The position numbers and the translations under genes are program-made. 64,000 bases of DNA from a virus (Duplodnaviria; Heunggongvirae; Uroviricota; Caudoviricetes): IMG/VR virus record IMGVR_UViG_3300028422_001686; one strand, given 5' to 3'. The notes under the pieces are model-generated. The model was not told the origin of the DNA. It made no database searches and saw nothing but the letters and a program-made list of their open reading frames with translations. Of the stretch, positions 16,234 to 62,451 are shown one piece after another. How positions within the stretch are numbered: the stretch's first letter is position 1; each line of letters starts with the position of its first letter.

Positions 16234-16271
16234 TTTTAATAATAATATTTTAATACATTATGGAGGACGAC

Positions 16272-20408: not shown

Positions 20409-20411
20409 TAA

Positions 20412-20568: not shown

Positions 20569-20593
20569 TTTTTTAAGTAGAGAGGTTGCTGCT

Positions 20594-22213: not shown

Positions 22214-22223
22214 GAGGTATTCT

Positions 22224-22346: not shown

Positions 22347-22352
22347 TTAAAG

Positions 22353-22376
22353 GAGCTTCGGCTCCTTTTTTATTTA
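22353..22376 (+). terminator. intrinsic terminator
   Basis: GGAGCTTCGGCTCC hairpin followed by TTTTTTATTT. Confidence 0.65.
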
Positions 22377-22387
22377 AGGAAAAAGAA

Positions 22388-22741: not shown

Positions 22742-22744
22742 TTC

Positions 22745-23650: not shown

Positions 23651-23805
23651 TATGGGTTTCTTAAAAGACAATTACCATAAAATTGCTATAGGTTTTGCTT
23701 TAATGGTAGCCCTTTATTCTGGGGCCTTAATTTATTCTGCGTATAAATTCGGCTCTTTTATGGAAGGGCTGAATTCTTATTACATGAAGCATTCAGAGGT
23801 TGTTA

Positions 23806-24948: not shown

Positions 24949-25164
24949 GGAGATAGTTAGGTGAATACATTTTAAGCAAAAAAGTATTTGACAATAATAT
25001 CTTATGTATTTTATAATACGTGTATGAATATGAATACAAAACCATCCATTAATAATTATTGGAATACTGACTCAGAGGAGACAGTATAGGGTTTAGTTTT
25101 ATATTATATTCATAAATAAAGCTAAAACCCTAACCTTAAAACAGTTAGGGTTTTTTGTTTTTGC

Positions 25165-25241
25165 GGGGGTGTAGTTAAGTTGGTTATAACGCTACCCTGT
25201 CACGGTAGAGGCCACGGGTTCGAGCCCCGTTACTCCCGCCA
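25165..25241 (+). tRNA. tRNA-Asp (GTC)
   Basis: Acceptor GGGGGTG pairs with TACTCCC. D-arm GTTA...TAAC. Anticodon stem CTACC with loop CTGTCAC. T-arm ACGGG-TTCGAGC-CCCGT. The 3' end is GCCA. Confidence 0.75.
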
Positions 25242-25254
25242 TATTTTTAATAGT

Positions 25255-25331
25255 GTCCTCTTAGCTCAGTTGGTGGTAGCAGCTGACTGTTAATCAGCAG
25301 GCCTTTGGTTCAAATCCAAAAGGGGACGCCA
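25255..25331 (+). tRNA. tRNA-Asn (GTT)
   Basis: Acceptor GTCCTCT pairs with AGGGGAC. Anticodon stem GCTGA with loop CTGTTAA. T-arm TTTGG-TTCAAAT-CCAAA. The 3' end is GCCA. Confidence 0.75.
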
Positions 25332-25335
25332 TTTT

Positions 25336-25421
25336 GCGTAGGTGGCCGAGTGGTTAAAGGCAGCAGACTGTAAATCTGCCCTCTTCGGAGTACGGTGGTT
25401 CAAATCCACCCCTGCGCACCA
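25336..25421 (+). tRNA. tRNA-Tyr (GTA), with long variable arm
   Basis: Acceptor GCGTAGG pairs with CCTGCGC. D-arm GCCGAGTGGTTAAAGGC. Anticodon stem GCAGA with loop CTGTAAA. T-arm GGTGG-TTCAAAT-CCACC. The 3' end is ACCA. Confidence 0.75.
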
Positions 25422-25424
25422 TTT

Positions 25425-25550
25425 AAAGTTGTTATAGGTGAGAACGGACAAAGCCAAGCAACCCGCACCTGAGAAAAGAATGCAACGGCTAGGGAGCCAT
25501 CCTGAAGGCACGGATCATCCGTGAAAAGCTGACAGCCAGGAAAGTACTGG
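25425..25550 (+). ncRNA. candidate structured small RNA between tRNA-Tyr and tRNA-Glu
   Basis: ~130 nt with no ORF. It contains the hairpins AGGTG...CACCT, GGCTAGGGAGCC and CACGGATCATCCGTG. Confidence 0.3.
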
Positions 25551-25556
25551 CAATAT

Positions 25557-25634
25557 GCACCCATCGTCTAATCAGGTTCAGGACACTACCTTTTCACGGT
25601 AGGTATCCGGGTTCAAATCCCGGTGGGTGTACCA
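25557..25634 (+). tRNA. tRNA-Glu (TTC)
   Basis: The sequence aligns arm-for-arm with E. coli tRNA-Glu. Acceptor GCACCCA pairs with TGGGTGT. Anticodon stem CTACC with loop TTTTCAC. T-arm CCGGG-TTCAAAT-CCCGG. The 3' end is ACCA. Confidence 0.75.
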
Positions 25635-25655
25635 TTTTAAATAGAAGATTAGTAT

Positions 25656-25731
25656 CTCCGTATAGCGCAGCTGGTAGCGCACAATTTTTGGGAAGTTGGG
25701 GTCGTAGGTTCAAATCCTACTACGGAGACCA
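25656..25731 (+). tRNA. tRNA-Pro (TGG)
   Basis: Acceptor CTCCGTA pairs with TACGGAG. D-arm GCGC-AGCTGGTA-GCGC. Anticodon stem CAATT with loop TTTGGGA. T-arm GTAGG-TTCAAAT-CCTAC. The 3' end is ACCA. Confidence 0.7.
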
Positions 25732-25740
25732 AATAAAAAA

Positions 25741-25817
25741 GGTAGCTTAACTCAGTTGGTTAGAGTGCTAACCTGATAAGTTAGAAGTCCCAAGTTCAAA
25801 TCTTGGAGTTACCACCA
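25741..25817 (+). tRNA. tRNA-Ile (GAT)
   Basis: Acceptor GGTAGCT pairs with AGTTACC. D-arm ACTC-AGTTGGTTA-GAGT. Anticodon stem CTAAC with loop CTGATAA. T-arm CCAAG-TTCAAAT-CTTGG. The 3' end is ACCA. Confidence 0.75.
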
Positions 25818-25838
25818 TAAATTTTGTAAACAAGTTTT

Positions 25839-25914
25839 GCCTTTACTTGGTAGAGTGACTCAACGGAGCACTGATAAAGCTCAGAGGTTAGGTTAAAATC
25901 CTACAGTAGAGGCA
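25839..25914 (+). tRNA. degenerate tRNA-like element (possible pseudo-tRNA, anticodon-loop-like CTGATAA)
   Basis: Acceptor-like GCCTTTA pairs with TAGAGGC. An anticodon-like hairpin GAGC-(A)CTGATAA-(A)GCTC is present. The T-arm is weak (TAGG-TTAAAAT-CCTA) and there is no regular D-arm or encoded CCA. Confidence 0.3.
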
Positions 25915-26318
25915 ATTTAAGGGTTTCCCTTGCTCAGGAAGCGCGCGAAAACGCACTTAAATAATGAGCTAAAATATAGTGTCACCTACAACGAACTAGA
26001 TAGCGCTAGTCGTGCTTAGTGGTGAGGTTGATAGGCTGCTATCTTCTAATAGATAAAAAGGAGAAAAAATGATAATTATTCATTTTTTAGGGATAATGTG
26101 CATTCTTGTTCTTGTATCTATTTTAATTATGTCATTAGTTGATTTTATAAGGAGGCTTGTATTTGCGGACTATACCAAAAAGAAAACTCCTGTTATTGGT
26201 CGTTCATTTGATCAATTAAAAATTCTGAAAGATCTTGAAGAAACTTATAATAATCATAACCCTAAAACTTGTAGGGTTGATTGTTGTATATTATGTTATT
26301 CAGAGAGAAATGAAAAAA

Positions 26319-26393
26319 GGGCATCTAGCATAACTGGTAGTGCAGCGGAGTCCAAATCCGCGTGTTTGGGTTCAAGTCCTGGGGTGCCCGCCA
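26319..26393 (+). tRNA. tRNA-Trp (CCA)
   Basis: Acceptor GGGCATC pairs with GGTGCCC. D-arm GCAT-AACTGGTA-GTGC. Anticodon stem GCGGA/TCCGC with loop GTCCAAA. T-loop TTCAAGT on a weak, GU-rich T-stem. The 3' end is GCCA. Its layout aligns with E. coli tRNA-Trp. Confidence 0.6.
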
Positions 26394-46670: not shown

Positions 46671-46922
46671 ATGGATATTTTAATGAACCATAATATAGCA
46701 TACCCTTGCTATGTTTTAATTAAAGAAGAGGAAAACACTCTTATAGCAAATAGCGATGGTGTTGGTAAAGTTGCCTTACATCATCCAGATTCCTTTTTAA
46801 AGAAGGGGATGAAGGTTTACTTTAATAATTTAAAAAAAAGTTGTGTTGTCATAAATGGTGAATCATTTTTTGTGTTAAAGCAAGAAGACATCTATTTATA
46901 CGAAGAGGCTGGACATGAGTAA
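46671..46922 (+). CDS. putative co-chaperonin (GroES-like)
   Basis: 83 aa, directly upstream of and overlapping the GroEL-like gene. The segment VLIKEEENTLIANSDGVGKVALHHPD fits a GroES-type beta layout. The assignment rests on position and size. Confidence 0.3.
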   Translation: MDILMNHNIAYPCYVLIKEEENTLIANSDGVGKVALHHPDSFLKKGMKVYFNNLKKSCVVINGESFFVLKQEDIYLYEEAGHE

Positions 46923-48603
46923 GAAAAATGTAAGAACCGCTGAAACAAAAAGTGTTGTATCTCAGGGGCTATGTCTTCTAGAAGATATTGTCTGTGGAAC
47001 AATGGGGCCTGGTGGACGAAATGTTATTCTTGAAAATTCATCTGGCGCACCAGTGATTACAAAAGATGGTGTAACTGTTGCACAATCAGTACCTGACCTT
47101 GAAGACAATGAGTTGAATTTAATTGTTAGAATCATTAAAGAGTCAGCTGAAAAAACAAATAGAGAAGCTGGTGATGGAACTACTACTAGTATTTGTTTAA
47201 CACATGCAATTTATAATGCTGGTGTGGACATTATTGAGTCAAACAAAATAAAAAATGTTAATAAGCTAAAGAAAGAAATCAAGGATGGTGTTGATCTAAT
47301 TATTCAGAGTATTGATAAATACTTTAAAGTCGACATCGCAAACTTGCCTGATGAAGAAAAGAAAAAGTATCTTTATAGCATTGCAAATATCTCTTTAAAC
47401 GGAGATAAAAAGTATGCTTCATTAATTTCAGATGTAGTAGCAAAAGCTGGACTAACCTCAATGATTGCAGTTGAGGACGGTAAAGGGTACACAGATGAGT
47501 TAATTAAGATTGAAGGGATGCAGTTTAATAAAGGTTGGGTTTCACCTTACTTTAAACAGACTGAACAACAAAAAGAGATTTCATTAGATAATCCATATAT
47601 TTTTATGACAACTTTTGATCTCACAAGTACTGGGCAGTTGGGCCTTTTAGAAAAAGCACTTAACCCATTAATTGCTGGTGGCAAACAACTTTTAATCATT
47701 GCTCCAAATGTGAGTGGTGGACTTCTTAATAGTCTGATTGCAAACAATAAACAAAAGAATTTAGTAAACTGTGCTGTATTTGCTCCTTATTATGGGAACG
47801 TAAGAAAAGAGTTTATGCAAGATTTGGCAATTAGTACAGGTGCTACAATTATTGATCAAGCTGAAGGACACTCTCTTTCTAAGGTTGAAGTTAGCCATTT
47901 TGGTAAATGTGAAAGGGCAATTGTAACTGCTACTGGAACGTCAATTATTGGTGGAGCTGGAGATACTTCAAAGGTTAAAGCTAGAATTAACTTCTTAAAA
48001 GAGGAAGCTAAAAAAGTTAACCCCCATAATGACTTAGATAAGGTTCACGAAAGATTGGCTAAAATTGAAGGTGGAGCTTATGTTATACAGCTTGCTAATC
48101 AATCGTATATTGAAGGGTTAGAGCTTAAGCATAGAATTGAGGATGCTGTAAATGCATGTAAAGGTGCTCTTGAGGGTGGTATTGTTGCAGGTGGAGGAGC
48201 TACTTTGTTCGCCGCAGCTAAAACATCATTAGATTGTTCAATTCCTGGTCACCTTATTTTATCTAAAGCTTGTGAAGCCCCGATGGAAAAGATACTCTAT
48301 AATATTGGTGTTGATTTTTCAGATAGAAATGAGTTGTTACAATTCTTTTTAGATAAGCGCATTAGGTCATGGGAAAAAGAAAAAGAGTCTAAGCCTTTTT
48401 CAAGTACTTATACAATTTCCGAAAAGAACGATAAAGGTGTTAAGTTAAATGATGACTGTTTTGCTACAGGTGTTGTAGATCCAGCAAAAGTAACTAAACA
48501 TGCTCTTTCTAATGCAGCTTCAGTTTCAGCTACTTTATTAACTACTAATGGTATTATTTCCTCTATTCCTGAGGTAAATCCAATGCCATTTTCAATGTAT
48601 TAG
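46915..48603 (+). CDS. groL: GroEL-like chaperonin (Cpn60)
   Basis: The N-terminal LLEDIVCGTMGPGGRNVILENSSGAPVITKDGVTVAQSV matches the GroEL signature TLGPKGRNVVL...ITKDGVSVA. Length is 562 aa and the C-terminus ends in MY. Confidence 0.75.
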   Translation: MSKKNVRTAETKSVVSQGLCLLEDIVCGTMGPGGRNVILENSSGAPVITKDGVTVAQSVPDLEDNELNLIVRIIKESAEKTNREAGDGTTTSICLTHAIYNAGVDIIESNKIKNVNKLKKEIKDGVDLIIQSIDKYFKVDIANLPDEEKKKYLYSIANISLNGDKKYASLISDVVAKAGLTSMIAVEDGKGYTDELIKIEGMQFNKGWVSPYFKQTEQQKEISLDNPYIFMTTFDLTSTGQLGLLEKALNPLIAGGKQLLIIAPNVSGGLLNSLIANNKQKNLVNCAVFAPYYGNVRKEFMQDLAISTGATIIDQAEGHSLSKVEVSHFGKCERAIVTATGTSIIGGAGDTSKVKARINFLKEEAKKVNPHNDLDKVHERLAKIEGGAYVIQLANQSYIEGLELKHRIEDAVNACKGALEGGIVAGGGATLFAAAKTSLDCSIPGHLILSKACEAPMEKILYNIGVDFSDRNELLQFFLDKRIRSWEKEKESKPFSSTYTISEKNDKGVKLNDDCFATGVVDPAKVTKHALSNAASVSATLLTTNGIISSIPEVNPMPFSMY

Positions 48604-49751: not shown

Positions 49752-49791
49752 GATAAATGTAAACATTTAGATATTTTTTACTTTTTAGTAT

Positions 49792-50025
49792 TATGTAAAT
49801 TACATTCCCCTGAAACAGGGTAAGTGATTCCTTCAGGAATGCTTGTACGGGTATCACTAATCGATCACCCTCCCCAGCATTCCACCAGGAATCACATCCC
49901 CTCCCGTCTATAGACGGGAAGGTTTCAGGGGATAGTAATTTACCAGGTGGCCAGATCCAAAACCGGTACCCGAGACGGATACCTGCTGGCCGCCTGACCC
50001 TTTTAGGGTTAATAGAAACTGGAGT
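49792..50025 (+). ncRNA. GC-rich, highly structured non-coding element (candidate ncRNA or cis-regulatory leader)
   Basis: A 10-bp long-range helix CCCCTGAAAC...GTTTCAGGGG encloses two ATTCC-N4-GGAAT hairpins and a CCCGTC-TATA-GACGGG hairpin. An 11-bp helix CAGGTGGCCAG/CTGGCCGCCTG follows. There is no ORF and GC content is well above the flanks. Confidence 0.4.
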
Positions 50026-50030
50026 TTTTT

Positions 50031-51142: not shown

Positions 51143-51511
51143 ATGGAAAGTAGAAGTAAAATTAAAACAGGCGATGTTTATCAAATTCGCAAAAGCGGAA
51201 GAAACTACATTGCTATCGGTAAAGCAAAAGACAATGCAGGAAATGTTTACATTTGTTCTGTGTTAAATGGAAATGTTAATCCAGATGGAACTATGAAAGT
51301 TTATACAAACAGAAAGCCATCTATTCATTTTCATAAAGCACGTAATGTGTATCGTGTTCATTCTACACGTGAAGTTGATTACGGGACTTTTGTAAGTGCA
51401 AATCCAAAGATGGTTAAGTTGGTACGTCCTATGGCTCAAAATACTGGCGTAGAGATTGTTTCACCAAACATTCCATATCAATTGAAAAATCTATTTAAAA
51501 TTGTAAGCTAG
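51143..51511 (+). CDS. hypothetical protein
   Basis: RBS AAGGAGAA upstream of a 122-aa ORF. Confidence 0.45.
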   Translation: MESRSKIKTGDVYQIRKSGRNYIAIGKAKDNAGNVYICSVLNGNVNPDGTMKVYTNRKPSIHFHKARNVYRVHSTREVDYGTFVSANPKMVKLVRPMAQNTGVEIVSPNIPYQLKNLFKIVS

Positions 51512-51553
51512 TTGTTTCAACTATCTATAATTAAGTAGATTTTATTATTTCTT

Positions 51554-51900
51554 TTACCAGCTAACTTTCAGGGACCAGGAATCCTTTCAGATCATGATTG
51601 TGAACAATCTCTCCTGAATGAATCCCAGGACCCTTCAGTAGCTGGTAAAAATTGTAAACTTGGTCAGGAGGAGGTAACTCCTCCTGAAAAAGTTTTTTTC
51701 TATTTTAAAAAAAATCTGTAGTTATATTTAATGACAGTAAGAAGTATCTTCTTATTTTTAAATACTTACTACTGTCAAACATGTTAACGTAAACATCTCA
51801 TCCTTCACTAATCGTTCGGAAGGAGATGTTAACGTTTACATGTTTGGATCCTTCAGGATGTCTTCAGTCATCCTGGAGGATCACCCCTTGGGGTGATTAT
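51554..51900 (+). other. ~350-bp non-coding region packed with long inverted repeats and hairpins
   Basis: Five elements are present. First, a perfect 10-bp outer stem TTACCAGCTA/TAGCTGGTAA (51554 and 51639) enclosing repeated GGACC-N-TTCAG units. Second, the hairpin CAGGAGGA-GGTAAC-TCCTCCTG (51665-51686). Third, an imperfect hairpin at 51735-51774. Fourth, a 22-bp inverted repeat (20 of 22 paired) AACATGTTAACGTAAACATCTC...GAGATGTTAACGTTTACATGTT (51778-51844). Fifth, the hairpins GGATCCTTCAGGATG...CATCCTGGAGGATC and ATCACCCC/GGGGTGAT (51846-51899). Confidence 0.5.
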
Positions 51901-51958
51901 AATTAGTTATTTTATGACACAATGTTGTGTCTATATTTGTTGCTATAAGGAGGAAACT

Positions 51959-52132
51959 ATGGCACGTGTACTTTATTTTGAAGGTCAAGAACTTCCACTA
52001 CAAGACGGTATGACTATTGATGAAGCTAAAGAATGGGCTCAGGTAGTATTTCCAGGTCTTGAATCTGCTGAAGGCTATGAAGATGAAGACGGAAACTACG
52101 TCTTCACAAAGAAAGCCGGAACTAAAGGGTAG
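51959..52132 (+). CDS. small protein ending in Gly; candidate ubiquitin-like (beta-grasp) protein
   Basis: 57 aa, ending in the C-terminal residues ...KKAGTKG. The strong RBS AAGGAGGAAACT lies just upstream of the ATG. It is the first gene downstream of the structured region and upstream of the E2/JAB/E1 genes. It is absent from the ORF track at this start. Confidence 0.35.
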   Translation: MARVLYFEGQELPLQDGMTIDEAKEWAQVVFPGLESAEGYEDEDGNYVFTKKAGTKG

Positions 52133-52207
52133 TTAATACCCTTAGACATTTATTTACTTTATAGCCTTTTGTATTAAAGGATTTTAAATTATTAATTAGG
52201 AGGGACT

Positions 52208-52483
52208 ATGTCATTAGGTCTAACTTTATTTAATTCATTAAAAGAGAGTAAGGAGCTAGAAAACATTATCCCTCTAGAGTACTCAAAAGTAGTGGCAGAT
52301 CTGGCCGATGTGTCAGACTGCCAACAACTAGAAAAATTAATGGGTGAAATAACCCTATTCGATATAATCGATAAATATAAAGATAGTGAATCATCTCTAG
52401 TCTTTCAAAAGAAAAGAATGAGAGACATCTATCATAGGCTGCTAAGGCTTGAAGCCGTTCCAGGAATCTGTAATTTTATATAA
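52208..52483 (+). CDS. hypothetical protein
   Basis: RBS AGGAGGGA upstream of a 91-aa ORF. Confidence 0.45.
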   Translation: MSLGLTLFNSLKESKELENIIPLEYSKVVADLADVSDCQQLEKLMGEITLFDIIDKYKDSESSLVFQKKRMRDIYHRLLRLEAVPGICNFI

Positions 52484-52495
52484 TAGGAGAATAAT

Positions 52496-53278
52496 ATGTT
52501 AAATAACGTTTTGAGTAAAGATGTACAAAATAAATTGTTAATCTCTTATTATTATTCATTTGGAAGATCGCTAGGTTTGTTATCTGCAAAAAGAGGAATA
52601 AAAAGCGATGCTTTATGGAAAATCATTAAAGCTTTAATGAATAAAGCTTTGCCCTTTATTCCTGTATCTAAAGAAAGAAACTCTGATTGTATGTTAATAT
52701 CCATACAGAAAGGTCTAACTGGATACATGGTCTCATTAAGAGCTATGATAAGAAATTTAATTTCACAAAGAGATCCTACTTATTGGAGGAGTGAGGATAG
52801 AACTCTACCAAATAAAAGCCACATGATTACTGGCCCAGATAAGCTTCATGTATTAAGTAAAAAACTTCTTAAGTTCATGTATGGTGATGATTACAAGAAA
52901 CATTTTCCAACTCTTATCATCCCTAACTTTTTAACTCAGACGGAGACATGGACTTCTGCTCTTCGAGCTGATTTTGTAAATGTATATAAGGTTCTTAATG
53001 AACCATGCATTAAGGGCTTACAAAAGATAAATACAGATGAAATGAAACAAAATCTGAATGTAGGAATAAAAAAAGCCTATATTTCAATGATTCGGCATTC
53101 GTTACTTCAAGCATTAAGGCATGATACTCATGCAGTAATAAAGGATGCTAATAATAATTTTAAAAATGTTACTGAAACTACAGCTGAATTAGCAGAGGAT
53201 GGTGAAGGAAAGGTTAGTGCTTTTCCCAATCAACTAAGATCTAGCTATTACCTATATACAGACAGGAGTACAACATGA
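52496..53278 (+). CDS. hypothetical protein (upstream member of the E2-JAB-E1 operon)
   Basis: 260-aa ORF, translationally coupled to the E2-like gene. Confidence 0.45.
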   Translation: MLNNVLSKDVQNKLLISYYYSFGRSLGLLSAKRGIKSDALWKIIKALMNKALPFIPVSKERNSDCMLISIQKGLTGYMVSLRAMIRNLISQRDPTYWRSEDRTLPNKSHMITGPDKLHVLSKKLLKFMYGDDYKKHFPTLIIPNFLTQTETWTSALRADFVNVYKVLNEPCIKGLQKINTDEMKQNLNVGIKKAYISMIRHSLLQALRHDTHAVIKDANNNFKNVTETTAELAEDGEGKVSAFPNQLRSSYYLYTDRSTT

Positions 53279-54009
53279 GTTTATGCAATATTGAAATAAA
53301 TGAAAGCTCAGCAATCTTAACATATAAAGAGCACCATAGAATGGCTGCTGTAACTTCTAAGTCAATTGACATTGCTGATTTAGGTAAGGTTCTGGCGGCT
53401 AATGTTGAGATGGATAGTGGACTTATTTATACTCCTCCAACCATGCAAATTAAGAGGTATATGAAGAAAGGTTCTTCAGAAATGGTTTTAATTGAAGAAG
53501 CTCCAAGAAAACGAAAAATAAAGCATTACGACTGTGGCGAGCTTGAAATTATGCTTCCTAGACTAGTCTATGGAATCCTACATAACTCTCAATTGTCTGG
53601 AAGATCTGCCTTGAACATGAGAATTGGAACGGTTAAGGGTCCTATAATAACTGGTAAAGAGCCAATTTACCGGTTCTTTTTTCCAAATGTATATGATACT
53701 GGAACTATTTGTTGGGGTTATTCAAGAGATAGAAATGAGGATTCCTTAAATTCTATTACTTATGCTTTAGCTTTGATTGAATCTTTTTGGGGTGGGGTAT
53801 CTAATAATGATTTATATAGATCTCCATTGGCAGATACAGATAGAATAAAAAGTGACAAGTTAGGTCTTGATTATTGTGACAAGTATTTAAAATATATTGC
53901 GACACTAGATCAGTATCCAGAGGAGTTTATTCATTCTCCTCTAAGTTCAAAAGTTGGATTTTCAGTAAACAATTTCTGTAGCCTAGTGTTAGGAAACTCG
54001 GGAGAATAG
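53275..54009 (+). CDS. E2-like (UBC-fold) ubiquitin-conjugating-enzyme homolog
   Basis: FFPNVYDTGTICWGY resembles the UBC active-site motif HPN-x(5-8)-G-x-IC, with a candidate catalytic Cys. Gene order matches Bil-like operons. Confidence 0.5.
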   Translation: MSLCNIEINESSAILTYKEHHRMAAVTSKSIDIADLGKVLAANVEMDSGLIYTPPTMQIKRYMKKGSSEMVLIEEAPRKRKIKHYDCGELEIMLPRLVYGILHNSQLSGRSALNMRIGTVKGPIITGKEPIYRFFFPNVYDTGTICWGYSRDRNEDSLNSITYALALIESFWGGVSNNDLYRSPLADTDRIKSDKLGLDYCDKYLKYIATLDQYPEEFIHSPLSSKVGFSVNNFCSLVLGNSGE

Positions 54010-54011
54010 TC

Positions 54012-55064
54012 ATGGGAAAAAAAGAAGATTTTTTAAAGTCAGTTATAAACTACCATTGTGGTGAATCAAAAGATACAGTTATTAATCCATTCTTTAATTA
54101 TATAGTTCAATCTGACGGTGACTACTATGTAGAAAAGAATTCAATTGGAACTTTTGTTGCGAAAGTTCTTGAAGTAAAAGATGGTGAAAAATTACGCCCA
54201 GGCCTTCCTGTAGAATACAAGGGGTCCTTTGTAGATTTTTCTCTTCCTAAAATTCCTGAAGATATTTTTTATCAAATTTTAGGCTTTTTTCAAGCTATTG
54301 CTCACGATATGGGTGATTCAGAAGCCTTTATACAAATTTATTATGACAAAACTAATAATGAATATCAGGTTGTAGTACCCAAGCAAACAGTATCTAAAGC
54401 TTCTGTAAACTATGATAGAGACAAGGATTTACATATTTTATATCCTTCTCGATATATTCTAGTTATGGATATCCACAGCCATAATAGTATGCCTGCTTTC
54501 TTTTCTGGAACTGATAATAGAGATGAAAAGTGTACAAGGTTTTATGGTGTTTTAGGTAAGGTTTGCAGTGATCAAATTGAAGAAAAATATAGATTTGTTT
54601 TAAAAGGAAGAGAAGTTCTTTTAAATAGATCTGACATTTTTGATGTTAAAGAAAAAACTGCTGTATTTCCCACTAATTGGAAAGATTCAATAAGTAAGTA
54701 TACCCAGCCCGCTGTGACAGCTGGTCCAACTCGTTATCCAGGAACATACAACTTTCCTACTACAGGAAGAGAAACATTTGACGACCTTAATGATTATTGG
54801 CCAAATGACAGTCTAGTTAACCCTAATACTGGGGAGCTAAGTTCGTATGATGGATATAATGATAGTTATGATTCATCGAATATGAAGTATTATGAAGGTA
54901 GTGATCAAATTGTAGACATGATCAAATATACAAATAACGATAATTGGACAGATCGTGATTATAGAAAAGTAATTTCAAATATCTTCTCATATTATTATGA
55001 GGAAGCCCCTGATGTTTTTCACGAATATATGGAAGTTTATTGTGAAGAACCTGACGGAGAATAG
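54012..55064 (+). CDS. JAB/MPN (JAMM) metallopeptidase, deubiquitinase-like
   Basis: HSHNSMPAFFSGTD matches the JAMM motif H-x-H-x7-S-x2-D exactly. Confidence 0.65.
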   Translation: MGKKEDFLKSVINYHCGESKDTVINPFFNYIVQSDGDYYVEKNSIGTFVAKVLEVKDGEKLRPGLPVEYKGSFVDFSLPKIPEDIFYQILGFFQAIAHDMGDSEAFIQIYYDKTNNEYQVVVPKQTVSKASVNYDRDKDLHILYPSRYILVMDIHSHNSMPAFFSGTDNRDEKCTRFYGVLGKVCSDQIEEKYRFVLKGREVLLNRSDIFDVKEKTAVFPTNWKDSISKYTQPAVTAGPTRYPGTYNFPTTGRETFDDLNDYWPNDSLVNPNTGELSSYDGYNDSYDSSNMKYYEGSDQIVDMIKYTNNDNWTDRDYRKVISNIFSYYYEEAPDVFHEYMEVYCEEPDGE

Positions 55065-55076
55065 AAAGAGGTAAAA

Positions 55077-55943
55077 ATGCAAGAGTTAAGTTCAAAAATA
55101 GAGGTAACTGTGGCTAGACCCGTTGCTCCTGAAGTTAAAATACCTGTTAAACCTTCTACTTCTACTGTTGCTGTGGCTCCTATAAGAACAAAACTAGGAG
55201 AGTCTTTAGGCTATGATAGAGAAGAAGATGGGATGCCTGCTCTAACAGTTTTTGTTGTTGGTTTAGGCGGGACAGGGGGATATGTTTTACGAGATCTGGC
55301 TCGATATGCTTACTATCTTAGAGTAAGTAAGAAAGCCGAACTCAATATCGTTCTTTATGATGGTGATACAGTAGAAGAAAAGAATCTTTTAAGACAGAAC
55401 TTTATCACTAGCGATCAAGGCAAGTATAAGGCTGAGGTTTTAGCAAAAAGATATTCTGCAGCTTTTGGTGTAGATATAAAGTTTGTAAATGAATACTTGT
55501 CTACTAAAAATATGGTTTCTCTTAATTATGGTAGATCCATTATAATTTCTTGTACTGACAGTAATGATGCTAGAAGGTTAATTCATAATGAAATTCTCCG
55601 CTCTAGAGTTGGACTTGTCTCTTGGATAGATTCTGGAAATGAAAAACGTAGTGGTCAAGTTATTCTTGGGGAAAAGAATAGAGGTTATTCTGGCTTCCAG
55701 ACATTTAAGTCTTGTATCGAGCTCTTTCCTGAACTAGCTGATCCTGCTAACGATCCGGTAGATACTCGTTCTTGTGCAGATGTTGGAATTGATGAATCAC
55801 AGAATTTATTTATCAATTCTATGGCAGCCATGATGGTAATGAATTTTGTTAGAGTTTTAGTTGAGAATGAATGGACCAATTTAAATGGTGTTTCTTTTGG
55901 GATTAATGGTGTTTCAACGCCAATTTTTATAGATAATAAGTAA
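55077..55943 (+). CDS. E1-like ubiquitin-activating enzyme homolog (ThiF/MoeB family)
   Basis: VVGLGGTGGYV is the GxGxxG nucleotide loop. YDGDTVEEKNLLRQNF is the D-x-D...NL-x-RQ motif. SCTDSNDARRL is the E1/MoeB C-x-D-N...R active-site region. Confidence 0.7.
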   Translation: MQELSSKIEVTVARPVAPEVKIPVKPSTSTVAVAPIRTKLGESLGYDREEDGMPALTVFVVGLGGTGGYVLRDLARYAYYLRVSKKAELNIVLYDGDTVEEKNLLRQNFITSDQGKYKAEVLAKRYSAAFGVDIKFVNEYLSTKNMVSLNYGRSIIISCTDSNDARRLIHNEILRSRVGLVSWIDSGNEKRSGQVILGEKNRGYSGFQTFKSCIELFPELADPANDPVDTRSCADVGIDESQNLFINSMAAMMVMNFVRVLVENEWTNLNGVSFGINGVSTPIFIDNK

Positions 55944-55956
55944 GGTGGAGTTTCGT

Positions 55957-56535
55957 ATGTCATATATAAGGCCTTTAGTTTTTGAAGACCCTTTAGAGTC
56001 TGAGACAAGAAATGATATTTCTATCCTAGAAAATCTTGGTGATGAATCATTTCTTTATGATATTTTTTATGACAGTAGGATTGGCGGGGTATGTCATCAC
56101 TATGCCTTTAATGGATTTAATGTTGGAATCTATTTTAGATCTAATGGAGTTATATGGACAAATGCAGTTTGTTTTTTTGATAGAAATTATTATTATCTAG
56201 GAATGAATGCGGATGGGACACTGAATACTTCACCAGTTAGTCGTTATGGAATACCATCAAGATTACATCTGACTTTACTTGTAGATGGAGATCCAGTAGA
56301 GTTTTTTCAAAATCAAAACTGTACTGTTCACTTCTTGCCTGGATCCTATAATTTAGATTTTTTAAAAAATTATACAGAAGAAACTGACCTAGACCTTGAA
56401 GAAGAGGATAGAGTTTCAGCAGAAAAGAAACTTCAATCATCTCTCTTGGCTTATTTTTTAAATATAGCTGAATATTTTGGTGGAGTTATCGATGGGCAAG
56501 ATGTATCGGATTCAGACAACCTCACAGAGTTTTAA
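55957..56535 (+). CDS. hypothetical protein between the E1-like gene and the RT
   Basis: ATG at 55957 preceded by AAGGTGGAG. About 192 aa. Its end overlaps the RT start. Confidence 0.45.
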   Translation: MSYIRPLVFEDPLESETRNDISILENLGDESFLYDIFYDSRIGGVCHHYAFNGFNVGIYFRSNGVIWTNAVCFFDRNYYYLGMNADGTLNTSPVSRYGIPSRLHLTLLVDGDPVEFFQNQNCTVHFLPGSYNLDFLKNYTEETDLDLEEEDRVSAEKKLQSSLLAYFLNIAEYFGGVIDGQDVSDSDNLTEF

Positions 56536-57367
56536 TAATTGTTTTTATATTAAAAGTACTGTTTTAAAAAAGAATGGTAAAAATAGAGTTATCTATGCCC
56601 CTTCTGATAAATTAAAAGAGTATCAAAAAGAAATTTCTAACATTCTTGAAAGTGGTTTTTCTGACATCTTAAATAGTAGTCATATAATGGGATTTGTTAA
56701 ACAAAAATCTATTGTCGATAATGCAACTAAGCATTTAGGTAAAGATTGGGTCATTAATATCGATATTAAAGATTTTTTTCCTAATATAAAAGGTCAGTAT
56801 GTTTATGATCTTATCTCTAAGAGGTCTATTATCTTTTCAGACTTTATATCTAAGTATAATAGCAGCTTGATAGATGTAGTAAGACTTTTAACATTAAAGG
56901 ACAAATTAATTCAGGGAAGCCCAGCTAGTCCTATAGTGGCAAATTTAATCGGTGCTGCGATGATTGACAATAAGGTTAAAGACTTTTTAGATTGCTATGC
57001 GCTTGATGATTTAGATTATACTCGTTATGCGGATGATCTTACAATCTCTTTCAATTCTGAGTTGAAAAAGCATGAACTAAAAGATATAATACACTCTTTA
57101 AAAAAAAGTTTAGACCCTTTTCAGTTCACAAAGAAAAAGACGATTATAAGTTCTAGATACGATAGACAAGAGGTGACTGGTATTACAGTAAATAATACTA
57201 GATGCAATCTTGGAAGAGAAAAAAGAAATTCTTTAAGAGGTTGGATTCATTCGGTTATTCAGAGTGGTAGATCAATTAAAGATGATCAAAGATTAATGGG
57301 ACACTTGTCTTATTTAAGATATGTTAATCCCGAAAGTTATAATAGATTAATAAAGAAATACAGTTAA
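56492..57367 (+). CDS. reverse transcriptase, retron-type (RT domain only)
   Basis: RT motifs occur in order: RVIYAPSDKLKEYQK (1), DIKDFFPNI (2/A), LIQGSPASPIVANL (4/B'), YTRYADDLTISF (5/C, YADD) and RQEVTGITVNN (the VTG motif typical of retron RTs). There is no maturase or endonuclease domain. Confidence 0.65.
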   Translation: MGKMYRIQTTSQSFNNCFYIKSTVLKKNGKNRVIYAPSDKLKEYQKEISNILESGFSDILNSSHIMGFVKQKSIVDNATKHLGKDWVINIDIKDFFPNIKGQYVYDLISKRSIIFSDFISKYNSSLIDVVRLLTLKDKLIQGSPASPIVANLIGAAMIDNKVKDFLDCYALDDLDYTRYADDLTISFNSELKKHELKDIIHSLKKSLDPFQFTKKKTIISSRYDRQEVTGITVNNTRCNLGREKRNSLRGWIHSVIQSGRSIKDDQRLMGHLSYLRYVNPESYNRLIKKYS

Positions 57368-57377
57368 GGAGTATTTT

Positions 57378-57704
57378 ATGCAAGTTACAGATGCAAGTTT
57401 TTTTCCAGTTAATAATGGCCCAACAGTTGCTTTGGGGCAAGTTATTTTAGATAAAGTCTTGAAGCTTAATGTAAAGATCATGAATGGTAAAAATGGTCTC
57501 TGGGTTGCTTTCCCTTCAAAATTAAGTCAAAAAGATAATAAATATTATTCGGATTTTAATTTTATTGATAAAGATGCACATGCTGATTTTTCTACAGCTG
57601 TTCTATCTGCTTATCATACAACTAATTCTCAAGGAAATGGTAGTCCTTTAAGTAGAAACAGTAACTCTGAAGCAGAGATTATGCAGGATGACTTACCATT
57701 TTAA
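57378..57704 (+). CDS. spoVG: SpoVG-like nucleic-acid-binding protein
   Basis: MQVTDASFFPVNNGPTVALGQVILDKVLKLNVKIMNGKNGLWVAFPSKLSQKDNKYYSDFNFIDKDAHADFSTAVLSAYH is collinear with B. subtilis SpoVG ([33 protein letters not shown].EY). Confidence 0.6.
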   Translation: MQVTDASFFPVNNGPTVALGQVILDKVLKLNVKIMNGKNGLWVAFPSKLSQKDNKYYSDFNFIDKDAHADFSTAVLSAYHTTNSQGNGSPLSRNSNSEAEIMQDDLPF

Positions 57705-57724
57705 GCTTCACTTTTTAGAGACCT

Positions 57725-57860
57725 AGTAGAACATTATAAAAACTACTAGATGTTCGCTTTAATGTAACCGCCAAAACCGAAAGGCTTTGGCGTTCCGTTT
57801 GATCTGAAGGCATTACAGTCAAAGCAGGATTCCTGCCTACTCTATTTTGGGTAGGCAGGA
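57725..57860 (+). other. hairpin-rich non-coding segment downstream of the RT/SpoVG genes
   Basis: The helices are CTAGTAG...CTACTAG, CGCCAAA-N10-TTTGGCG and a perfect 9-bp CCTGCCTAC...GTAGGCAGG. Confidence 0.35.
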
Positions 57861-58020
57861 CAAATGGAAGAATGAAGGGGTGATAAGATGACAATAGAAA
57901 AAAAGTTTAAAGAACCTGAACAATTAGTTTTATGGGACTTTAAAAATAACGATGATAAAGATAGAATTAGAGGTCTTAATACTAATGGCATTCTTTATGA
58001 TGACCAATGGTTAGGAACTA

Positions 58021-58341
58021 ATGATGACAAAGAAAAAGACAGGGCCGAAGAAGTTTACAGTTAATGATAAGCGTTTAAGGCATGGGGCAGAGATTAAGGA
58101 TATGCTTTATTACTGCTCAAATTATAAGTGTGTTGCAGAATTAATTAAATGGGATCCTGTCTCTGAGTTTTTTACTTTAAGACCAATTCCTTTAAGTATG
58201 GAAGAAGAAAAGTCTTTACCTAAGTTAATAAAGACTAGAGATGAATTTACATTTAGGCCTTGGTGTATAAAAAATAAAGAAAGAAAAAGATATAAAGAGT
58301 TTATACGTCTAAGAAATATTCTGAAGAGATGCGTCGCTTAG
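58021..58341 (+). CDS. hypothetical basic protein
   Basis: 106-aa ORF. An overlapping 59-aa ORF starting at 57888 has a better RBS (GAAGGGGTG) and may be the real gene instead. Confidence 0.35.
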   Translation: MMTKKKTGPKKFTVNDKRLRHGAEIKDMLYYCSNYKCVAELIKWDPVSEFFTLRPIPLSMEEEKSLPKLIKTRDEFTFRPWCIKNKERKRYKEFIRLRNILKRCVA

Positions 58342-58870
58342 CTTCAGCCTTTATATCCTTTGCTCCACTTTTAGTAATTCTACCATGATCTAGAATATGT
58401 CTGAGAGATAATCTCATTAACTCTATGTCATAGTAAAAAGATTTCAGTGGTAAGCTTAGACCAAGATAGTCTGCTAATTCAATAGAGTATTTTATGGCCT
58501 GTTCTTCTACATAGATAATAACGTCTTTACATACAGAAGGACATGGTTCACTTAAATTATCTTCGGGATAGTACTCATAAGCAGCCGTTTCTATTTCTGG
58601 CTCGCCCCGTTTAATAAAGTCTATATGATGTCCAAGCTCATGTAGTAGGGCAAAAATTGTTTTTAATGTAGAAAGGTTTTTAGCCACTCTGATAATAGGA
58701 CTTGATACGACGTTTTTACTTAGATAGTATGCTTCAAAATTATCTTCAGGAGTAACATTAATAAACTGAATATCAATGTTGAGAATTTCTTCTCCATATT
58801 TAATAATTTTTAGTAATTGATTGAGTTGTTTCTTAGGGTATCTTTCAAGGTCCTTTTTTGTTAAATTCAT
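58301..58870 (-). CDS. ImmA/IrrE-family HExxH metallopeptidase (the only minus-strand gene)
   Basis: FALLHELGHHIDF contains the HExxH motif in an ImmA/IrrE-like context. It lies on the minus strand, convergent with the upstream operon. The RBS GGAGGGAGG is visible in the reverse complement. Confidence 0.55.
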   Translation of the reverse strand: MNLTKKDLERYPKKQLNQLLKIIKYGEEILNIDIQFINVTPEDNFEAYYLSKNVVSSPIIRVAKNLSTLKTIFALLHELGHHIDFIKRGEPEIETAAYEYYPEDNLSEPCPSVCKDVIIYVEEQAIKYSIELADYLGLSLPLKSFYYDIELMRLSLRHILDHGRITKSGAKDIKAEAKRRISSEYFLDV

Positions 58871-58974: not shown

Positions 58975-59364
58975 TTGTCTATGTTGCACACATCTCAAAT
59001 GTCTGAAATTATTAAAGAATCAGTTTCTGCTATTATGACAAATAGCCGAAATAACTTTGATGCTATCTTGATGTTAAGTCAGCTTCTAATGAAGGTTGGA
59101 CAACGCATAAGTAAGATAAAAATAGATTTAGACACAGCAGATTATAAAGAATTAAATAAAATATATTATTTAGGTGATGGTTCTGATGCCGGACTTGGAC
59201 TTATTCTTAATGGAGTAAGTTTAATGTCTGCCTTACCAGATACCTATTTAGATTCAATAGAAGGAGAACAAAATGCTTTATCCATGTCCAGTAAGATTTC
59301 ACAAGAGAACAGTACAGCTTCAGTTGTCACTAAGTCTTCCAAGGCTAGAAGACGGAAGAACTAA
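58975..59364 (+). CDS. hypothetical protein
   Basis: RBS AAGGGGAG upstream of a 129-aa ORF. Confidence 0.45.
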   Translation: MSMLHTSQMSEIIKESVSAIMTNSRNNFDAILMLSQLLMKVGQRISKIKIDLDTADYKELNKIYYLGDGSDAGLGLILNGVSLMSALPDTYLDSIEGEQNALSMSSKISQENSTASVVTKSSKARRRKN

Positions 59365-59419
59365 AGAAGGCTGCGTCTTTCTTGAAATCGCAAAAGCCCT
59401 TGACGAAGAAGGGAAAAGA

Positions 59420-59725
59420 ATGGATTGGGACAATAAACTAGTTATGAAGCTAGGTTTGCCTGATCTAGTAGAGATTTTAGTTAAATTAAAAACTAAAGCT
59501 TTTCCAGCTAAGCTATTTCACAAAATTGATAATGGCCCATCCTCTACGTTGGAAGTTTCTGAAGGAAACAAAGCTGGAACTTATAGATGGTTCGTATCAA
59601 AAGACGGATCTTCTATGCCAATTTTCTTAGATGCAAAAGATATGTATCTAATTAGTGTATTACTTGAAAATGCTATTTCAGTAACTCAAGCTTGGGTTCC
59701 GGTAGCAAAGCCAAGGAATGCATAA
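59420..59725 (+). CDS. hypothetical protein
   Basis: Internal ATG (MDWDNK...) of the 59273 ORF. The start is uncertain. Confidence 0.35.
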   Translation: MDWDNKLVMKLGLPDLVEILVKLKTKAFPAKLFHKIDNGPSSTLEVSEGNKAGTYRWFVSKDGSSMPIFLDAKDMYLISVLLENAISVTQAWVPVAKPRNA

Positions 59726-59741
59726 AATGAAAGGAGAACAA

Positions 59742-60356
59742 ATGGAAGAGATTGCTGCGGCTGCGGAAGGAATGTTGCCTGCAAACTACCTACAAGGGTT
59801 TGACTTGTTTGGTGGTGGAACAGAGACAAAAACACGAAGCCTTATTGTTACTGGTGAGGTTGGAGAGTCTTTGGTGTCTAGCATAACTAAGAATTTATTA
59901 TCTCTTAGTGCTGAAGACCCTGAGATTCCAATTACTATGTACATCAACACCTATGGTGGATCTGCTTATGACATGTTTGCGATTTATGATGTAATGAATT
60001 TTGTAGAAACTCCAATTTATACAGTTGGATATGGTAAGGTAATGTCTGCCGGAGTTCTCCTTTTAGCTGCTGGAGAGCCAGGCCATAGATTTTTAACCCC
60101 CAATGCTAGTGTAATGATACACAGAATGAAGGGTGGAGTTTATGGTGGTGTCGCAGATTGGGAGTCAGAAAAAGAACATTTTGCTGACTTAGAAAAAAGA
60201 ATGGCCGCTCTCTTAAAAAGTCATTCTAAGCTTACTCAAGCGCAACTTAAAAGCTATTTAGATAATCAAAACATTTATTTAAATGCTAAAGATGCTAAAA
60301 AGTATGGTATTGTTGACCACGTTAAAGGTACAATGCCAAAGATCCTTAAAGGATAA
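59742..60356 (+). CDS. ClpP-like serine protease (S14 fold), possible prohead protease
   Basis: YINTYGGSAYDMFAIYDVMNFVETPIYTVGYGKVMSAGVLLLAAGEPGHRFLTPNASVMIHR aligns with the ClpP core (INSPGG...GxAASMG...R...P...MIHQ), including the active-site Ser. RBS AAAGGAG. Confidence 0.6.
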   Translation: MEEIAAAAEGMLPANYLQGFDLFGGGTETKTRSLIVTGEVGESLVSSITKNLLSLSAEDPEIPITMYINTYGGSAYDMFAIYDVMNFVETPIYTVGYGKVMSAGVLLLAAGEPGHRFLTPNASVMIHRMKGGVYGGVADWESEKEHFADLEKRMAALLKSHSKLTQAQLKSYLDNQNIYLNAKDAKKYGIVDHVKGTMPKILKG

Positions 60357-62077: not shown

Positions 62078-62451
62078 ATGAAAAGAGTAATGCAAGACAA
62101 ATTTGGGTATCCTGATGGAAATTGTTTTCAGGCATGTTTAGCTACTTTTTTAATAAAAATCTTTGTGATGTCCCAGACTTTAAAGGGAATGAGTGGTTTG
62201 AGAATTTTCAAAAATGGCTAGGACCCATGGGGTTTTATGCTTTATTTTATGAATGTCCTAATGGTTTGCCTGATTGGTTTGTTGAGACTGGTATAACTGC
62301 TATCTGTGGTATTGACTCTCCAAGAGGAGATTTTATGCATGCTGTTATTGCACAAGGAAAAGAGGTCTTGCATGATCCTCATCCAGACCAAGATGGATAT
62401 GATAAATTAATTAAAGACTTTATTATTATTGCTAGAAAAATATGCTTTTAA
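62078..62451 (+). CDS. OTU-like (papain-fold) cysteine peptidase, apparently split by a +1 frameshift in a T6 run
   Basis: Frame A (from 62078) encodes MKRVMQDKFGYPDGNCFQACLATFL, with an OTU-type D-G-N-C-F Cys motif. The ORF continues in frame B (62122-62451) after TTTTTT at 62146-62151 and contains GDFMHAVIA, a candidate catalytic His. Neither frame alone encodes a full domain. Confidence 0.35.

Follow-up and report, generated by a model that had tools for sequence, protein, structure and literature searches.

That bacteria conjugate ubiquitin-like (Ubl) proteins, by means of the Bil and CBASS Cap2/Cap3 systems, was demonstrated only recently, and so far for systems that act in host defence. 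The BilABCD operon reportedly encodes a Ubl, an E2, a JAB deubiquitinase and an E1 in this order, and CBASS Cap2/Cap3 use E1-, E2- and JAB-type domains as a conjugation/deconjugation pair. A further cassette with such genes is PRTRC (ParB-Related, ThiF-Related Cassette; TIGR03734-03742) of plasmids and integrative and conjugative elements (ICEs), which annotators have recorded on hundreds of plasmids from the TIGRFAMs era onwards; experimental work on its function was not found in the searchable literature. Mobile operons of Ubl, E1, E2 and JAB genes have been discussed by Aravind and colleagues as possible protein-level selfish elements (PMC3417536). Here we analyze a nine-gene block on a stretch of 64,000 nucleotides of the IMG/VR virus record IMGVR_UViG_3300028422_001686 (Caudoviricetes), hereafter the window, in which a Ubl cassette of apparent PRTRC type is followed by a retron-type reverse transcriptase (RT) and a SpoVG-like gene.

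The block occupies window positions 51959-57704 and consists of tightly packed genes on the plus strand, in the order Ubl-X-Y-E2-JAMM-E1-Z-RT-SpoVG-like. All nine genes recur in this order in ten distinct huge-phage loci (the window, L002, L004, L005, L006, L008, L014, L015, L016 and L019), and RT genes are statistically associated with phage-borne PRTRC-like cassettes, the block being inherited as a unit. We read it as one nine-gene block in which the Ubl cassette and the RT/SpoVG-like pair act in the same process, serving host takeover or counter-defence, and we assign this reading a probability of roughly 0.54.

The intergenic gaps from Y to Z are -4, +2, +12 and +1 or +13 nt, the last value being set by the start codon of Z (GTG or ATG). 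The stop codon of Y and the start codon of E2 overlap by 4 nt, Z and RT overlap by 44 nt, and RT is separated from the SpoVG-like gene by 10 nt. We infer that the block is co-transcribed, since the gaps from X to the SpoVG-like gene lie between -44 and +13 nt and only two terminator-like hairpins, both weak and within coding sequence, occur between the Ubl and the SpoVG-like gene. The open reading frames (ORFs) that an earlier note, made from the letters of this stretch alone, had placed here are all present. The same genes were returned by a separate gene call on a Logan contig of 51.9 kb, which encodes a sequence-identical E1 protein; the Ubl protein was also found on a 188-kb contig. As a whole, the observation of that note was confirmed, while its interpretation was partly supported.

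The nine relatives were obtained by different routes: L014, L015 and L016 via RT and not E1, L019 via a scan of IMG/VR, and the others via the neighbourhoods of E1 homologs. In the aligned set (L002, L004, L005, L006 and L008) the E1 proteins are only about 35-40% identical between loci. GroEL is encoded upstream of the block in eight of the nine relatives, as in the window; ClpP and/or RecA genes follow downstream in L006, L014 and L015, and a Whirly gene is present in L014-L016. Since nine relatives share the same nine genes in order, with GroEL upstream in eight, the block is a conserved lineage block and not a mobile island. The earlier note had suggested a horizontally mobile accessory island, bounded by a structured leader and a reverse-strand ImmA-like gene, and this we now regard as hardly credible. 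The leader of about 450 nt and the M78-like gene at the edge are indeed confined to the window, and the cassette type is mobile among plasmids and ICEs, but the relatives carry the block with neither element, GC content and GC skew are unchanged across it, and no flanking direct repeats or integrase were seen. In homologous phages these are conserved genes of the lineage, yet their association with RT and Ubl is kept.

The Ubl cassette and its relatives

Profile searches covered Pfam, NCBIfam, PHROGs and PADLOC, and the invariance of motifs was judged over six divergent loci, namely the window and orthologs from five others. On the reference replicon, plasmid 1 of Aromatoleum aromaticum EbN1, the PRTRC order is ParB-E-C-F-B-A-ThiF, and the order in the window can be written as Ubl(C)-X-Y-E2(B)-JAMM(A)-E1(ThiF). 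The E1, JAMM and Ubl of the window are homologous to their PRTRC counterparts, the E2 is likewise of the Prok-E2_D type, and the order Ubl...E2-JAMM-E1 on one strand is shared. The window differs in that its proteins score below the NCBI equivalog cutoffs, its JAMM protein is longer (350 aa versus about 220 aa), proteins X, Y and Z, an RT and a SpoVG-like protein are encoded in addition, and the carrier is a huge phage rather than a plasmid. For PRTRC ParB, tblastn against the whole window gave a best E-value of 0.82, and no block protein matched the ParB family at the sensitivity of BLAST and hidden Markov models (HMM). Proteins E and F gave nothing by tblastn against the window, and X, Y and Z had no matches among the PRTRC D, E and F models of NCBIfam. 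Cassettes of plasmids also vary: in Clostridium baratii, ORFs of 67, 96 and 314 aa are followed by E2, a 140-aa ORF and ThiF, the 96-aa ORF being X-sized and standing at the position of X. Based on the PRTRC matches and the shared order, the lack of ParB, E and F, and PADLOC matches to Bil that are near nil, genes 1-6 are best assigned to a PRTRC-type core, which by sequence is neither Bil nor the full canonical PRTRC.

The same four activities (Ubl, E2, JAB deubiquitinase and E1) are reportedly found in the same order in BilABCD, and the same chemistry would be expected, with a C-terminal Gly, a thioester relay and conjugation to lysine. The earlier note had called the operon Bil-type, but the closest curated families are those of PRTRC: of the Bil models in PADLOC only BilD matched E1, and this marginally (E 0.0022), while the Ubl, E2 and JAMM had no defence-system match. 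Further differences from BilABCD are that the system is encoded by a phage instead of a host, that it is linked to an RT, and that its Ubl is a single predicted beta-grasp domain of 57 aa. To CBASS Cap2/Cap3 there is a weak link through the PADLOC 'E1-E2' models, which match the window E1 at best at 3.6e-8. However, E1 and E2 are separate in the window and not fused, and a dedicated Ubl is present; the profile searches found no CD-NTase or CBASS effector family in the block.

Among cultured phages, Bacillus phage vB_BauM_KLEB27-3 (gp194-199) carries E2, JAMM and E1 in the order of the window, and JAMM and E1 were detected in Vibrio phage D69. The KLEB27-3 E1 is 29% identical to that of the window and matches the clade E1 profile at 2e-100. 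Unlike the window, both phages are without an RT or SpoVG-like gene beside the cassette, and the Ubl of KLEB27-3 is a four-repeat poly-Prok_Ub protein rather than a single domain. GenBank already labels the KLEB27-3 and D69 genes as 'PRTRC_A domain' and 'ThiF family'. No match to the block was obtained by blastn against 50,697 deposited phage records, nor was a cultured relative found in this phage collection, where the best GroEL match is 35% identical. A scan of IMG/VR with a pattern from the single E1 sequence gave no match, whereas the scan with an E1 profile did find loci (see below).

The Ubl gene (51959-52132, plus strand) encodes a 57-aa homolog of PRTRC protein C (Prok_Ub) that ends in ...AGTKG. 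Its orthologs are 39-53% identical, and the C-terminal motif F-x-K-[KR]-A-G-x-K-G is invariant in the aligned relatives, where it either ends the protein or precedes one last residue, Cys or Leu. Judged from the sequence, this ending is the signature of a Gly-terminal Ubl, apparently with a precursor form in some phages. Alignment of the Ubl profile with PRTRC_C of the Aromatoleum plasmid by hhalign gave a probability of 79% (E 1.6e-5) over residues 5-57 of 57, including the shared AGTKG end, and the match to TIGR03738 is weak (E 0.04, residues 2-57). The invariant Gly-terminal motif and the alignment to protein C bear out the proposal, made in the earlier note, that this small ORF is the Ubl. 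A homolog search with the Ubl sequence returned only the Ubl itself, and the family profile matches poly-Prok_Ub proteins of other jumbo phages (PF14454; 7.9e-30 and 5e-27). A single-sequence AlphaFold2 (AF2) model reached a pLDDT of 83 and displays a beta-beta-alpha-beta-beta fold, i.e., a beta-grasp-like topology, with a flexible tail. In two loci the Ubl is encoded as four tandem Prok_Ub repeats (L025:1722-2840 and L012:1718-2425, the latter being gp199 of the cultured phage KLEB27-3). Such a protein would be a polyubiquitin-like precursor that JAMM would have to cut.

Behind the Ubl gene, eight of the nine relatives have a GC-rich hairpin with a T-run, which suggests attenuation after this gene, so that the Ubl would be kept in excess over the enzymes; the window is without a strong GC-rich version. 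Hairpins between Ubl and X were noted in L002, L004, L005, L006, L008, L014, L015 and L019. A small hairpin over the Ubl stop codon (window 52122-52145) is formed in most of nine folded loci and is clear in the window and five relatives.

The E2-like gene (53275-54009, plus strand) matches Pfam Prok-E2_D at 1.8e-4, below the cutoff, which its orthologs in L006 and L018 exceed. Against NCBIfam PRTRC_B (TIGR03737) the E-value is 0.21, and the clade E2 profile matches canonical PRTRC_B at 2e-4. Residues C146 (in ...TICWG), N138, W147 and G148 are invariant in all six sequences. The Cys in ICWG, which the earlier note had named as catalytic, is conserved throughout, and Cys146 is a candidate catalytic residue.

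The following gene (54012-55064, plus strand) encodes a JAMM/JAB metallopeptidase of the PRTRC_A type with a long and variable C-terminal extension (Pfam Prok-JAB 1.3e-4). It matches PRTRC_A (TIGR03735) at 4.7e-14, with 52.4 bits versus a cutoff of 101.8, and is hit by tblastn with the Aromatoleum PRTRC_A at 5.6e-11. The H-x-H-x7-S-x2-D motif that had been pointed out in this protein is retained in all aligned loci, with E104, H155, S156, H157, S165 and D168 invariant (HSH-x7-S-x2-D). Searches of PDB sequences with the E2 and JAMM profiles returned nothing meaningful.

The E1-like gene (55077-55943, plus strand) encodes a ThiF-family Ubl-activating enzyme (Pfam ThiF 7.7e-21). Its best family by far is PRTRC_ThiF (TIGR03736; E 7.6e-41), where it scores 140.0 bits versus a curated cutoff of 144.75, and tblastn with the canonical plasmid ThiF gives 1.5e-29. 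The protein thus appears from its sequence to be a clear PRTRC_ThiF homolog that falls just short of the equivalog level. Invariant in E1 are GxGGxGG, D95xD97, K102-N-L-x-R-Q-N-F, D161 and S232-C233-A234. These include the glycine-rich, DxD and KNLxRQNF motifs listed in the earlier note, whereas the 'CTDSNDAR' segment given there corresponds to the nucleotide-site motif GCVDNNxARR, the Cys of which is Ala in KLEB27-3. C233, in 'SCA', is the only invariant cysteine of E1, and Cys233 is therefore the likely catalytic Cys. The closest solved relatives of E1 by sequence are the E1 enzymes of NEDD8, UBA6 and UBA5 type. Together, the profile searches uphold the E2/JAMM/E1 triad, with ThiF, Prok-JAB/PRTRC_A and Prok-E2_D assigned, the last one below the cutoff in the window and passing it in orthologs. 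A sulfur-carrier (ThiS/MoaD) pathway was considered and is ruled out by the presence of E2 and JAMM and the absence of cofactor-biosynthesis genes.

Protein X (52208-52483, plus strand; 91 aa) is fast-evolving, with a conserved C-terminus D-F-I; it is 16-23% identical among relatives at the same position, with the initiator Met as the sole invariant column. It has no Pfam, PHROGs or PADLOC match and only two non-significant matches in NCBIfam. Protein Y (52496-53278, plus strand; 260 aa), also fast-evolving (13-19% identical), takes the position of PRTRC protein F, to which hhalign detected no similarity (probability 0.06%); meaningful family matches for Y were not found. Protein Z (55957-56535, plus strand) is an orphan of 192 aa, or 196 aa if read from the GTG at 55945. 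At its position the clade has an ORF of 106-146 aa, which is 12-22% identical among six aligned sequences with no invariant column, and phmmer against 1.84 billion representative proteins returned only Z itself and two weak, spurious partial matches. Some lineages are without Z, and in L021 an HNH endonuclease gene (L021:9342-9986, 5e-10) stands between E1 and RT. While the aligned enzymes and the Ubl are 22-53% identical with invariant catalytic residues, identity drops to 12-23% for X, Y and Z, whose alignments contain no invariant column except the initiator Met. Conserved enzymes beside divergent proteins are the pattern expected of a conflict system.

The reverse transcriptase and its association with the cassette

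Downstream of the triad the block runs on, as the earlier note had seen, into protein Z, a retron-type RT and a SpoVG homolog. The RT (56492-57367, plus strand; 291 aa) matches Pfam RVT_1 at 8.9e-19, NCBIfam retron_St85_RT at 1.8e-55 (188 bits versus a cutoff of 235), PADLOC RT_XIII at 2.6e-53 and RT_II-A at 1.2e-52, and phrog_2825 at 2.4e-48. It has the motifs NAxxH (NATKH), QGSPxSP, YADD and VTG, all of which are unchanged across six orthologs, and the catalytic residues are intact as far as the sequence can tell. An RT of a diversity-generating retroelement was also considered and rejected, since the protein contains QGSPxSP and retron motifs and is matched best by models of retron RTs. The likeness to retrons (St85/Sen2-like type II-A, and type XIII) lies in NAxxH, VTG, YADD and the strong model matches. 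The window RT differs from them by its St85 score below the cutoff, by the failure to find an msr/msd or a known effector domain, by its partners, which are the E1/E2/JAMM cassette and an SSB-tailed SpoVG-like protein (SSB, single-stranded-DNA-binding protein), and by a clade that is specific to huge phages. Only 47 of the 50,697 deposited phage records match the window RT at E <= 1e-5.

Retron effector domains (NDT, TIR, Toprim, protease, 2TM and others) were searched for in Z, the SpoVG-like protein and the products of the flanking genes and were not found, and a search for inverted repeats of the a1/a2 type near RT gave AT-rich matches at chance level only. These results bear on the idea of a phage-borne defence, Bil-like or of another kind, in which the Ubl system excludes competing phages (superinfection exclusion) by tagging their virion proteins and RT is a second defence gene. 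Retrons are known defence systems and often prophage-borne, the RT strongly matches the PADLOC retron models, and the enzyme classes and their order are said to be those of BilABCD. Nevertheless, such a defence role seems improbable to us: PRTRC models fit far better than the single BilD match, neither a recognisable retron effector nor an msr/msd was found with RT, and the block is a fixed-position lineage feature of huge, apparently lytic-type genomes and not a variable islet.

The last gene of the block (57378-57704, plus strand) encodes a nucleic-acid-binding protein of SpoVG fold, with a low-complexity linker and the tip ...DDLPF. Its match to Pfam SpoVG (PF04026) has an E-value of 1.1e-9 and 38.7 bits versus a gathering cutoff of 29.6, and covers profile positions 1-81 of 82. 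The terminal P-F is invariant in the clade, where orthologs end in DDIPF, DLPF, PPF and similar, and in 25 of 25 SpoVG-like homologs found close to PRTRC-like cassettes of phages, a low-complexity linker leads to a terminal P-F or P-W. The C-terminal tip of bacterial SSB, DDDIPF or DDDLPF, recruits genome-maintenance proteins and serves as a hub for binding partners; the SSB encoded on locus L010 carries DDDLPF. The window protein and bacterial SSB share a layout of a nucleic-acid-binding core, a low-complexity linker and an acidic-Pro-Phe end. The core is an OB fold in SSB versus a SpoVG fold in the window protein, which is hence no member of the SSB family, and its partner binding is putative.

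A homolog of the Whirly family of single-stranded DNA (ssDNA)-binding proteins is encoded 1.6 kb downstream of the SpoVG-like gene (59273-59725; 35% identical to the Pfam-positive Whirly protein of L014, E 1e-29), directly followed by a ClpP protease gene (59718-60356). Related loci also have this Whirly-ClpP pair behind the block, and Whirly proteins are encoded beside RT or the cassette in L032 and L074. Some lineages without RT encode the SpoVG-like protein 5-6 kb in front of the cassette, with no RT near it. The SpoVG-like protein may therefore be a general phage factor for binding ssDNA or RNA and not a dedicated RT partner.

The IMG/VR scan with the E1 profile, an unbiased one, recovered 80 loci. 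Their E1 proteins were clustered at 60% identity, which left 36 clusters with enough flanking sequence, whose ORFs were searched with the clade profiles. A retron-type RT is encoded within 2.5 kb downstream of E1 in 10 of these 36 viral clusters and within 8.5 kb in five more; 21 have none. In seven of the ten clusters (L024, L032, L035, L058, L073, L074 and L082), which represent about four deep groups with E1 proteins 26-38% identical to that of the window, RT abuts or overlaps the E1 stop codon. RVT_1 was confirmed by Pfam in the divergent L073, L082 and L074, where the RT proteins are 450-630 aa long. The gene after RT varies and is either SpoVG-like or a Lar-like zinc ribbon followed by Whirly. 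In L024 a gene for a PrkA-type AAA/serine kinase stands directly after RT (L024:9742-11763, 2.8e-94).

As a control, PRTRC-like E1 loci of bacterial and archaeal assemblies were inspected, and an RT lies directly downstream in three of 80, versus 15 of the 36 viral clusters. The three are L203 (a Thorarchaeota metagenome-assembled genome (MAG), 4.1 kb), L206 (Thermoplasmata MAG, 9.3 kb) and L248 (Saccharimonadales MAG); they may be mis-binned viral contigs or viruses of hosts among archaea and the candidate phyla radiation. L203 has the phage-like E1-RT-SpoVG arrangement. In the reverse control, 74 of the 80 best IMG/VR RT loci had no cassette component nearby. Neighbour-joining trees of E1 and RT give the same groups, with RT-less E1 proteins interspersed and bacterial St85-type RTs placed among the phage RT groups. 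We read this as an old E1-RT association that was repeatedly kept or re-formed, specifically in jumbo phages, the trees being too weak to tell gains from losses.

These counts also bear on whether the block consists of two unrelated modules, a Ubl cassette of PRTRC-like type and an independent retron-like RT with its SpoVG-type DNA-binding protein, which would be neighbours in a conserved and densely packed region of a phage lineage and have no function in common. Plasmids and about half of the phage lineages have PRTRC cassettes without RT, small prophages commonly encode retron-type RTs but no E1, as the cassette-free majority of the best RT loci also indicates, the surrounding region from GroEL to ClpP/RecA is syntenic in the clade as well, and the SpoVG-like gene can be far from RT. 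We nonetheless consider this explanation rather unlikely. The abutting or overlapping position of RT at the E1 stop codon recurs across the deep groups, the E1-RT neighbourhood persists while the adjoining genes vary (Z, the HNH insert, and the zinc ribbon or Whirly in place of SpoVG), and RT is far rarer beside cellular cassettes than beside viral ones.

Proposed role

Following the E1/E2/JAMM paradigm, E1 would adenylate the terminal Gly57 of the Ubl and take the Ubl onto Cys233, from where it would be handed to Cys146 of E2 and ligated to lysines of target proteins. JAMM would trim the one-residue extension found in relatives or cut the poly-Ubl precursors, and might also remove the tag. 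The RT would produce ssDNA or cDNA, to which the SpoVG-like protein could bind, possibly together with the downstream Whirly homolog, and the SSB-like tip may link this product to the SSB-partner network of the host. The Ubl cassette would modify host or phage proteins in the same process. We hypothesize that host takeover or counter-defence during infection is the most likely role, because the system is phage-encoded, X, Y and Z evolve fast, and RT is linked to SSB-mimicking and ssDNA-binding proteins.

More specifically, and more tentatively, Ubl conjugation and the retron-type RT could work together as a composite jumbo-phage system, which we regard as possible. In one variant, the Ubl would be attached to, or would control, RT, its SSB-tailed partner or their DNA product. 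In another, ssDNA made by RT would, with the SSB mimic, recruit genome-maintenance factors of the host, which would then be tagged by the cassette.

Several observations weigh against a common process of cassette and RT. About half of the phage PRTRC-like cassettes have no RT within 7-8 kb, including those of the cultured Bacillus and Vibrio jumbo phages, and plasmid cassettes are likewise without it, so that the Ubl machinery needs no RT. The E1 and RT groupings are congruent, if only in crude neighbour-joining trees, and the association could thus partly reflect shared ancestry and not repeated selection. As the whole GroEL-ClpP-RecA region is syntenic in the clade, synteny alone is no proof of a functional link. 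An RNA of the msr/msd type adjoining RT was not found: a scan of positions 51400-58400 with Rfam gave no match at E <= 5, only generic hairpin noise, and a sliding z-score scan showed no structure peak upstream of RT in the Z region, with strong structure in the leader (to -10.6) and after the SpoVG-like gene (-5.3). Lineages in which RT overlaps E1 offer little non-coding space for a retron RNA, and the non-coding flanks of the block are not conserved. The template of RT may be a classical msr/msd, one hidden within coding sequence, or something else. On the side of the cassette, the top PDB match of the Ubl model, 8tz0_E (the Ubl of a bacterial E1-E2-Ubl complex), has a TM-score of 0.52 and is not significant (E 0.26), and the E2 fold was not confirmed by a single-sequence AF2 model, which was unusable at a pLDDT of 32.

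Another possibility is that the cassette modifies the virion or assembly proteins of the phage itself as a maturation step, with RT unrelated. Beta-grasp and JAB domains reportedly occur in phage tail assembly proteins, and the Ubl/JAB elements of lambda-like tail assembly are said to offer a parallel; a structural function would also be conserved in a lineage, as the block is. The neighbours, however, are genes for GroEL, RNA repair, ClpP, RecA and nucleic-acid binding, with no virion family match among those profiled, and plasmids, although they form no virions, widely carry this type of cassette. We regard this explanation as very improbable and keep to a shared process of the cassette and RT in host takeover or counter-defence.

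The cassette type and the RT type are known as families, and the annotation of a few cultured jumbo phages already includes PRTRC-like genes. What is new is the conservation of the nine genes as an ordered block, the repeated coupling of E1 with RT in jumbo phages, and the SpoVG-like partner with its SSB-like tip, and there is a substantial chance that the block is a composite system of new function. The earlier note had not recognised the combination of RT and Ubl cassette as a described system, and we likewise found no description of it in the searchable literature. A comparative review of jumbo phages from 2021 makes no mention of JAB, ThiF or retrons. Viral genes of ThiF/E1-like type are noted in a preprint on Asgard viruses, but not an operon of this kind.

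The locus places a full Ubl machinery, of the PRTRC type, on the side of the phage. The RT link, the SSB-tipped partners and the versions in RT-less cultured phages, with their polyubiquitin-like precursor, turn a long-standing 'hypothetical system' into a testable one, and the results hint that lytic phages may put reverse transcription to a new use. If the composite system is true, it would be a new device for host takeover or counter-defence and would provide the first functional context for PRTRC. If the two halves are independent, the data would still define a conserved Ubl cassette of huge phages, with its catalytic residues and a natural set of variants.

Surroundings of the block

Two structured non-coding regions flank the block. 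The hairpin-rich leader in front of it (51512-51958, plus strand) has a minimum free energy (MFE) of -157 kcal/mol and a z-score of -11.4 versus shuffled sequences. It contains about seven long hairpins, including a 24-bp stem at 51776-51846, and a terminator-like hairpin with a T-run at 51664-51687. The structure described in the earlier note is thus real, but relatives have only 33-96 nt at this position, no Rfam family matched, and blastn-short against all loci gave no similarity; the leader is probably not a conserved part of the system. It was also considered as the retron RNA, which is ruled out by its absence from all relatives. The intergenic region after the SpoVG-like gene (57705-57887, plus strand; MFE -61.6 kcal/mol, z = -4.9) folds into a closing stem around four hairpins. 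The same position is 126-390 nt long and hairpin-rich in relatives, with no sequence or architecture shared according to blastn-short and folding, and no Rfam match was obtained. This region could mark the end of the operon or be a candidate non-coding RNA. Farther upstream, an unusually structured intergenic region at 49752-50030 contains an inverted repeat with 36-nt arms, and is neither conserved nor matched by Rfam.

Beyond the block, an M78/ImmA-like HExxH protein is encoded on the minus strand (58301-58870). The ImmA/IrrE peptidase proposed earlier is reflected in a Peptidase_M78 match of 5.4e-4 that stays below the Pfam cutoff. This is the only convincing minus-strand gene in its part of the window. 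None of the related loci carries it, and it is therefore probably a recent insertion rather than a part of the system. An OTU-like peptidase, which the earlier note had put forward as a possible second deubiquitinase, found no profile support: ORF 62122-62451 has no Pfam match as an OTU deubiquitinase, even when merged with the second frame into a 124-aa protein, and relatives do not have it. The ORF is split over two reading frames (62078-62221 and 62122-62451), with the break near 62144-62158, where a T6/A5 run lies. The motif ...DGNCFQAC... is in the N-terminal piece and the His-containing part in the C-terminal one; the split may reflect an error of assembly, a pseudogene or a programmed frameshift.

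The window as a whole is AT-rich (GC about 0.33), with almost all coding sequence on the plus strand. A tmRNA (Rfam 94 bits, E 2.4e-35) and eight tRNA genes, six of which are clustered at 25165-25817, lie at 13692-14212 and 20332-26393. Genes for a Ro-like RNA-binding protein (16260-17948), an RNA ligase (18444-19526), a NAMPT-like protein (23800-24948) and GroEL (46915-48603) were also identified. This set of tRNAs, tmRNA, GroEL and genes for RNA repair and NAD is the repertoire of a huge phage.

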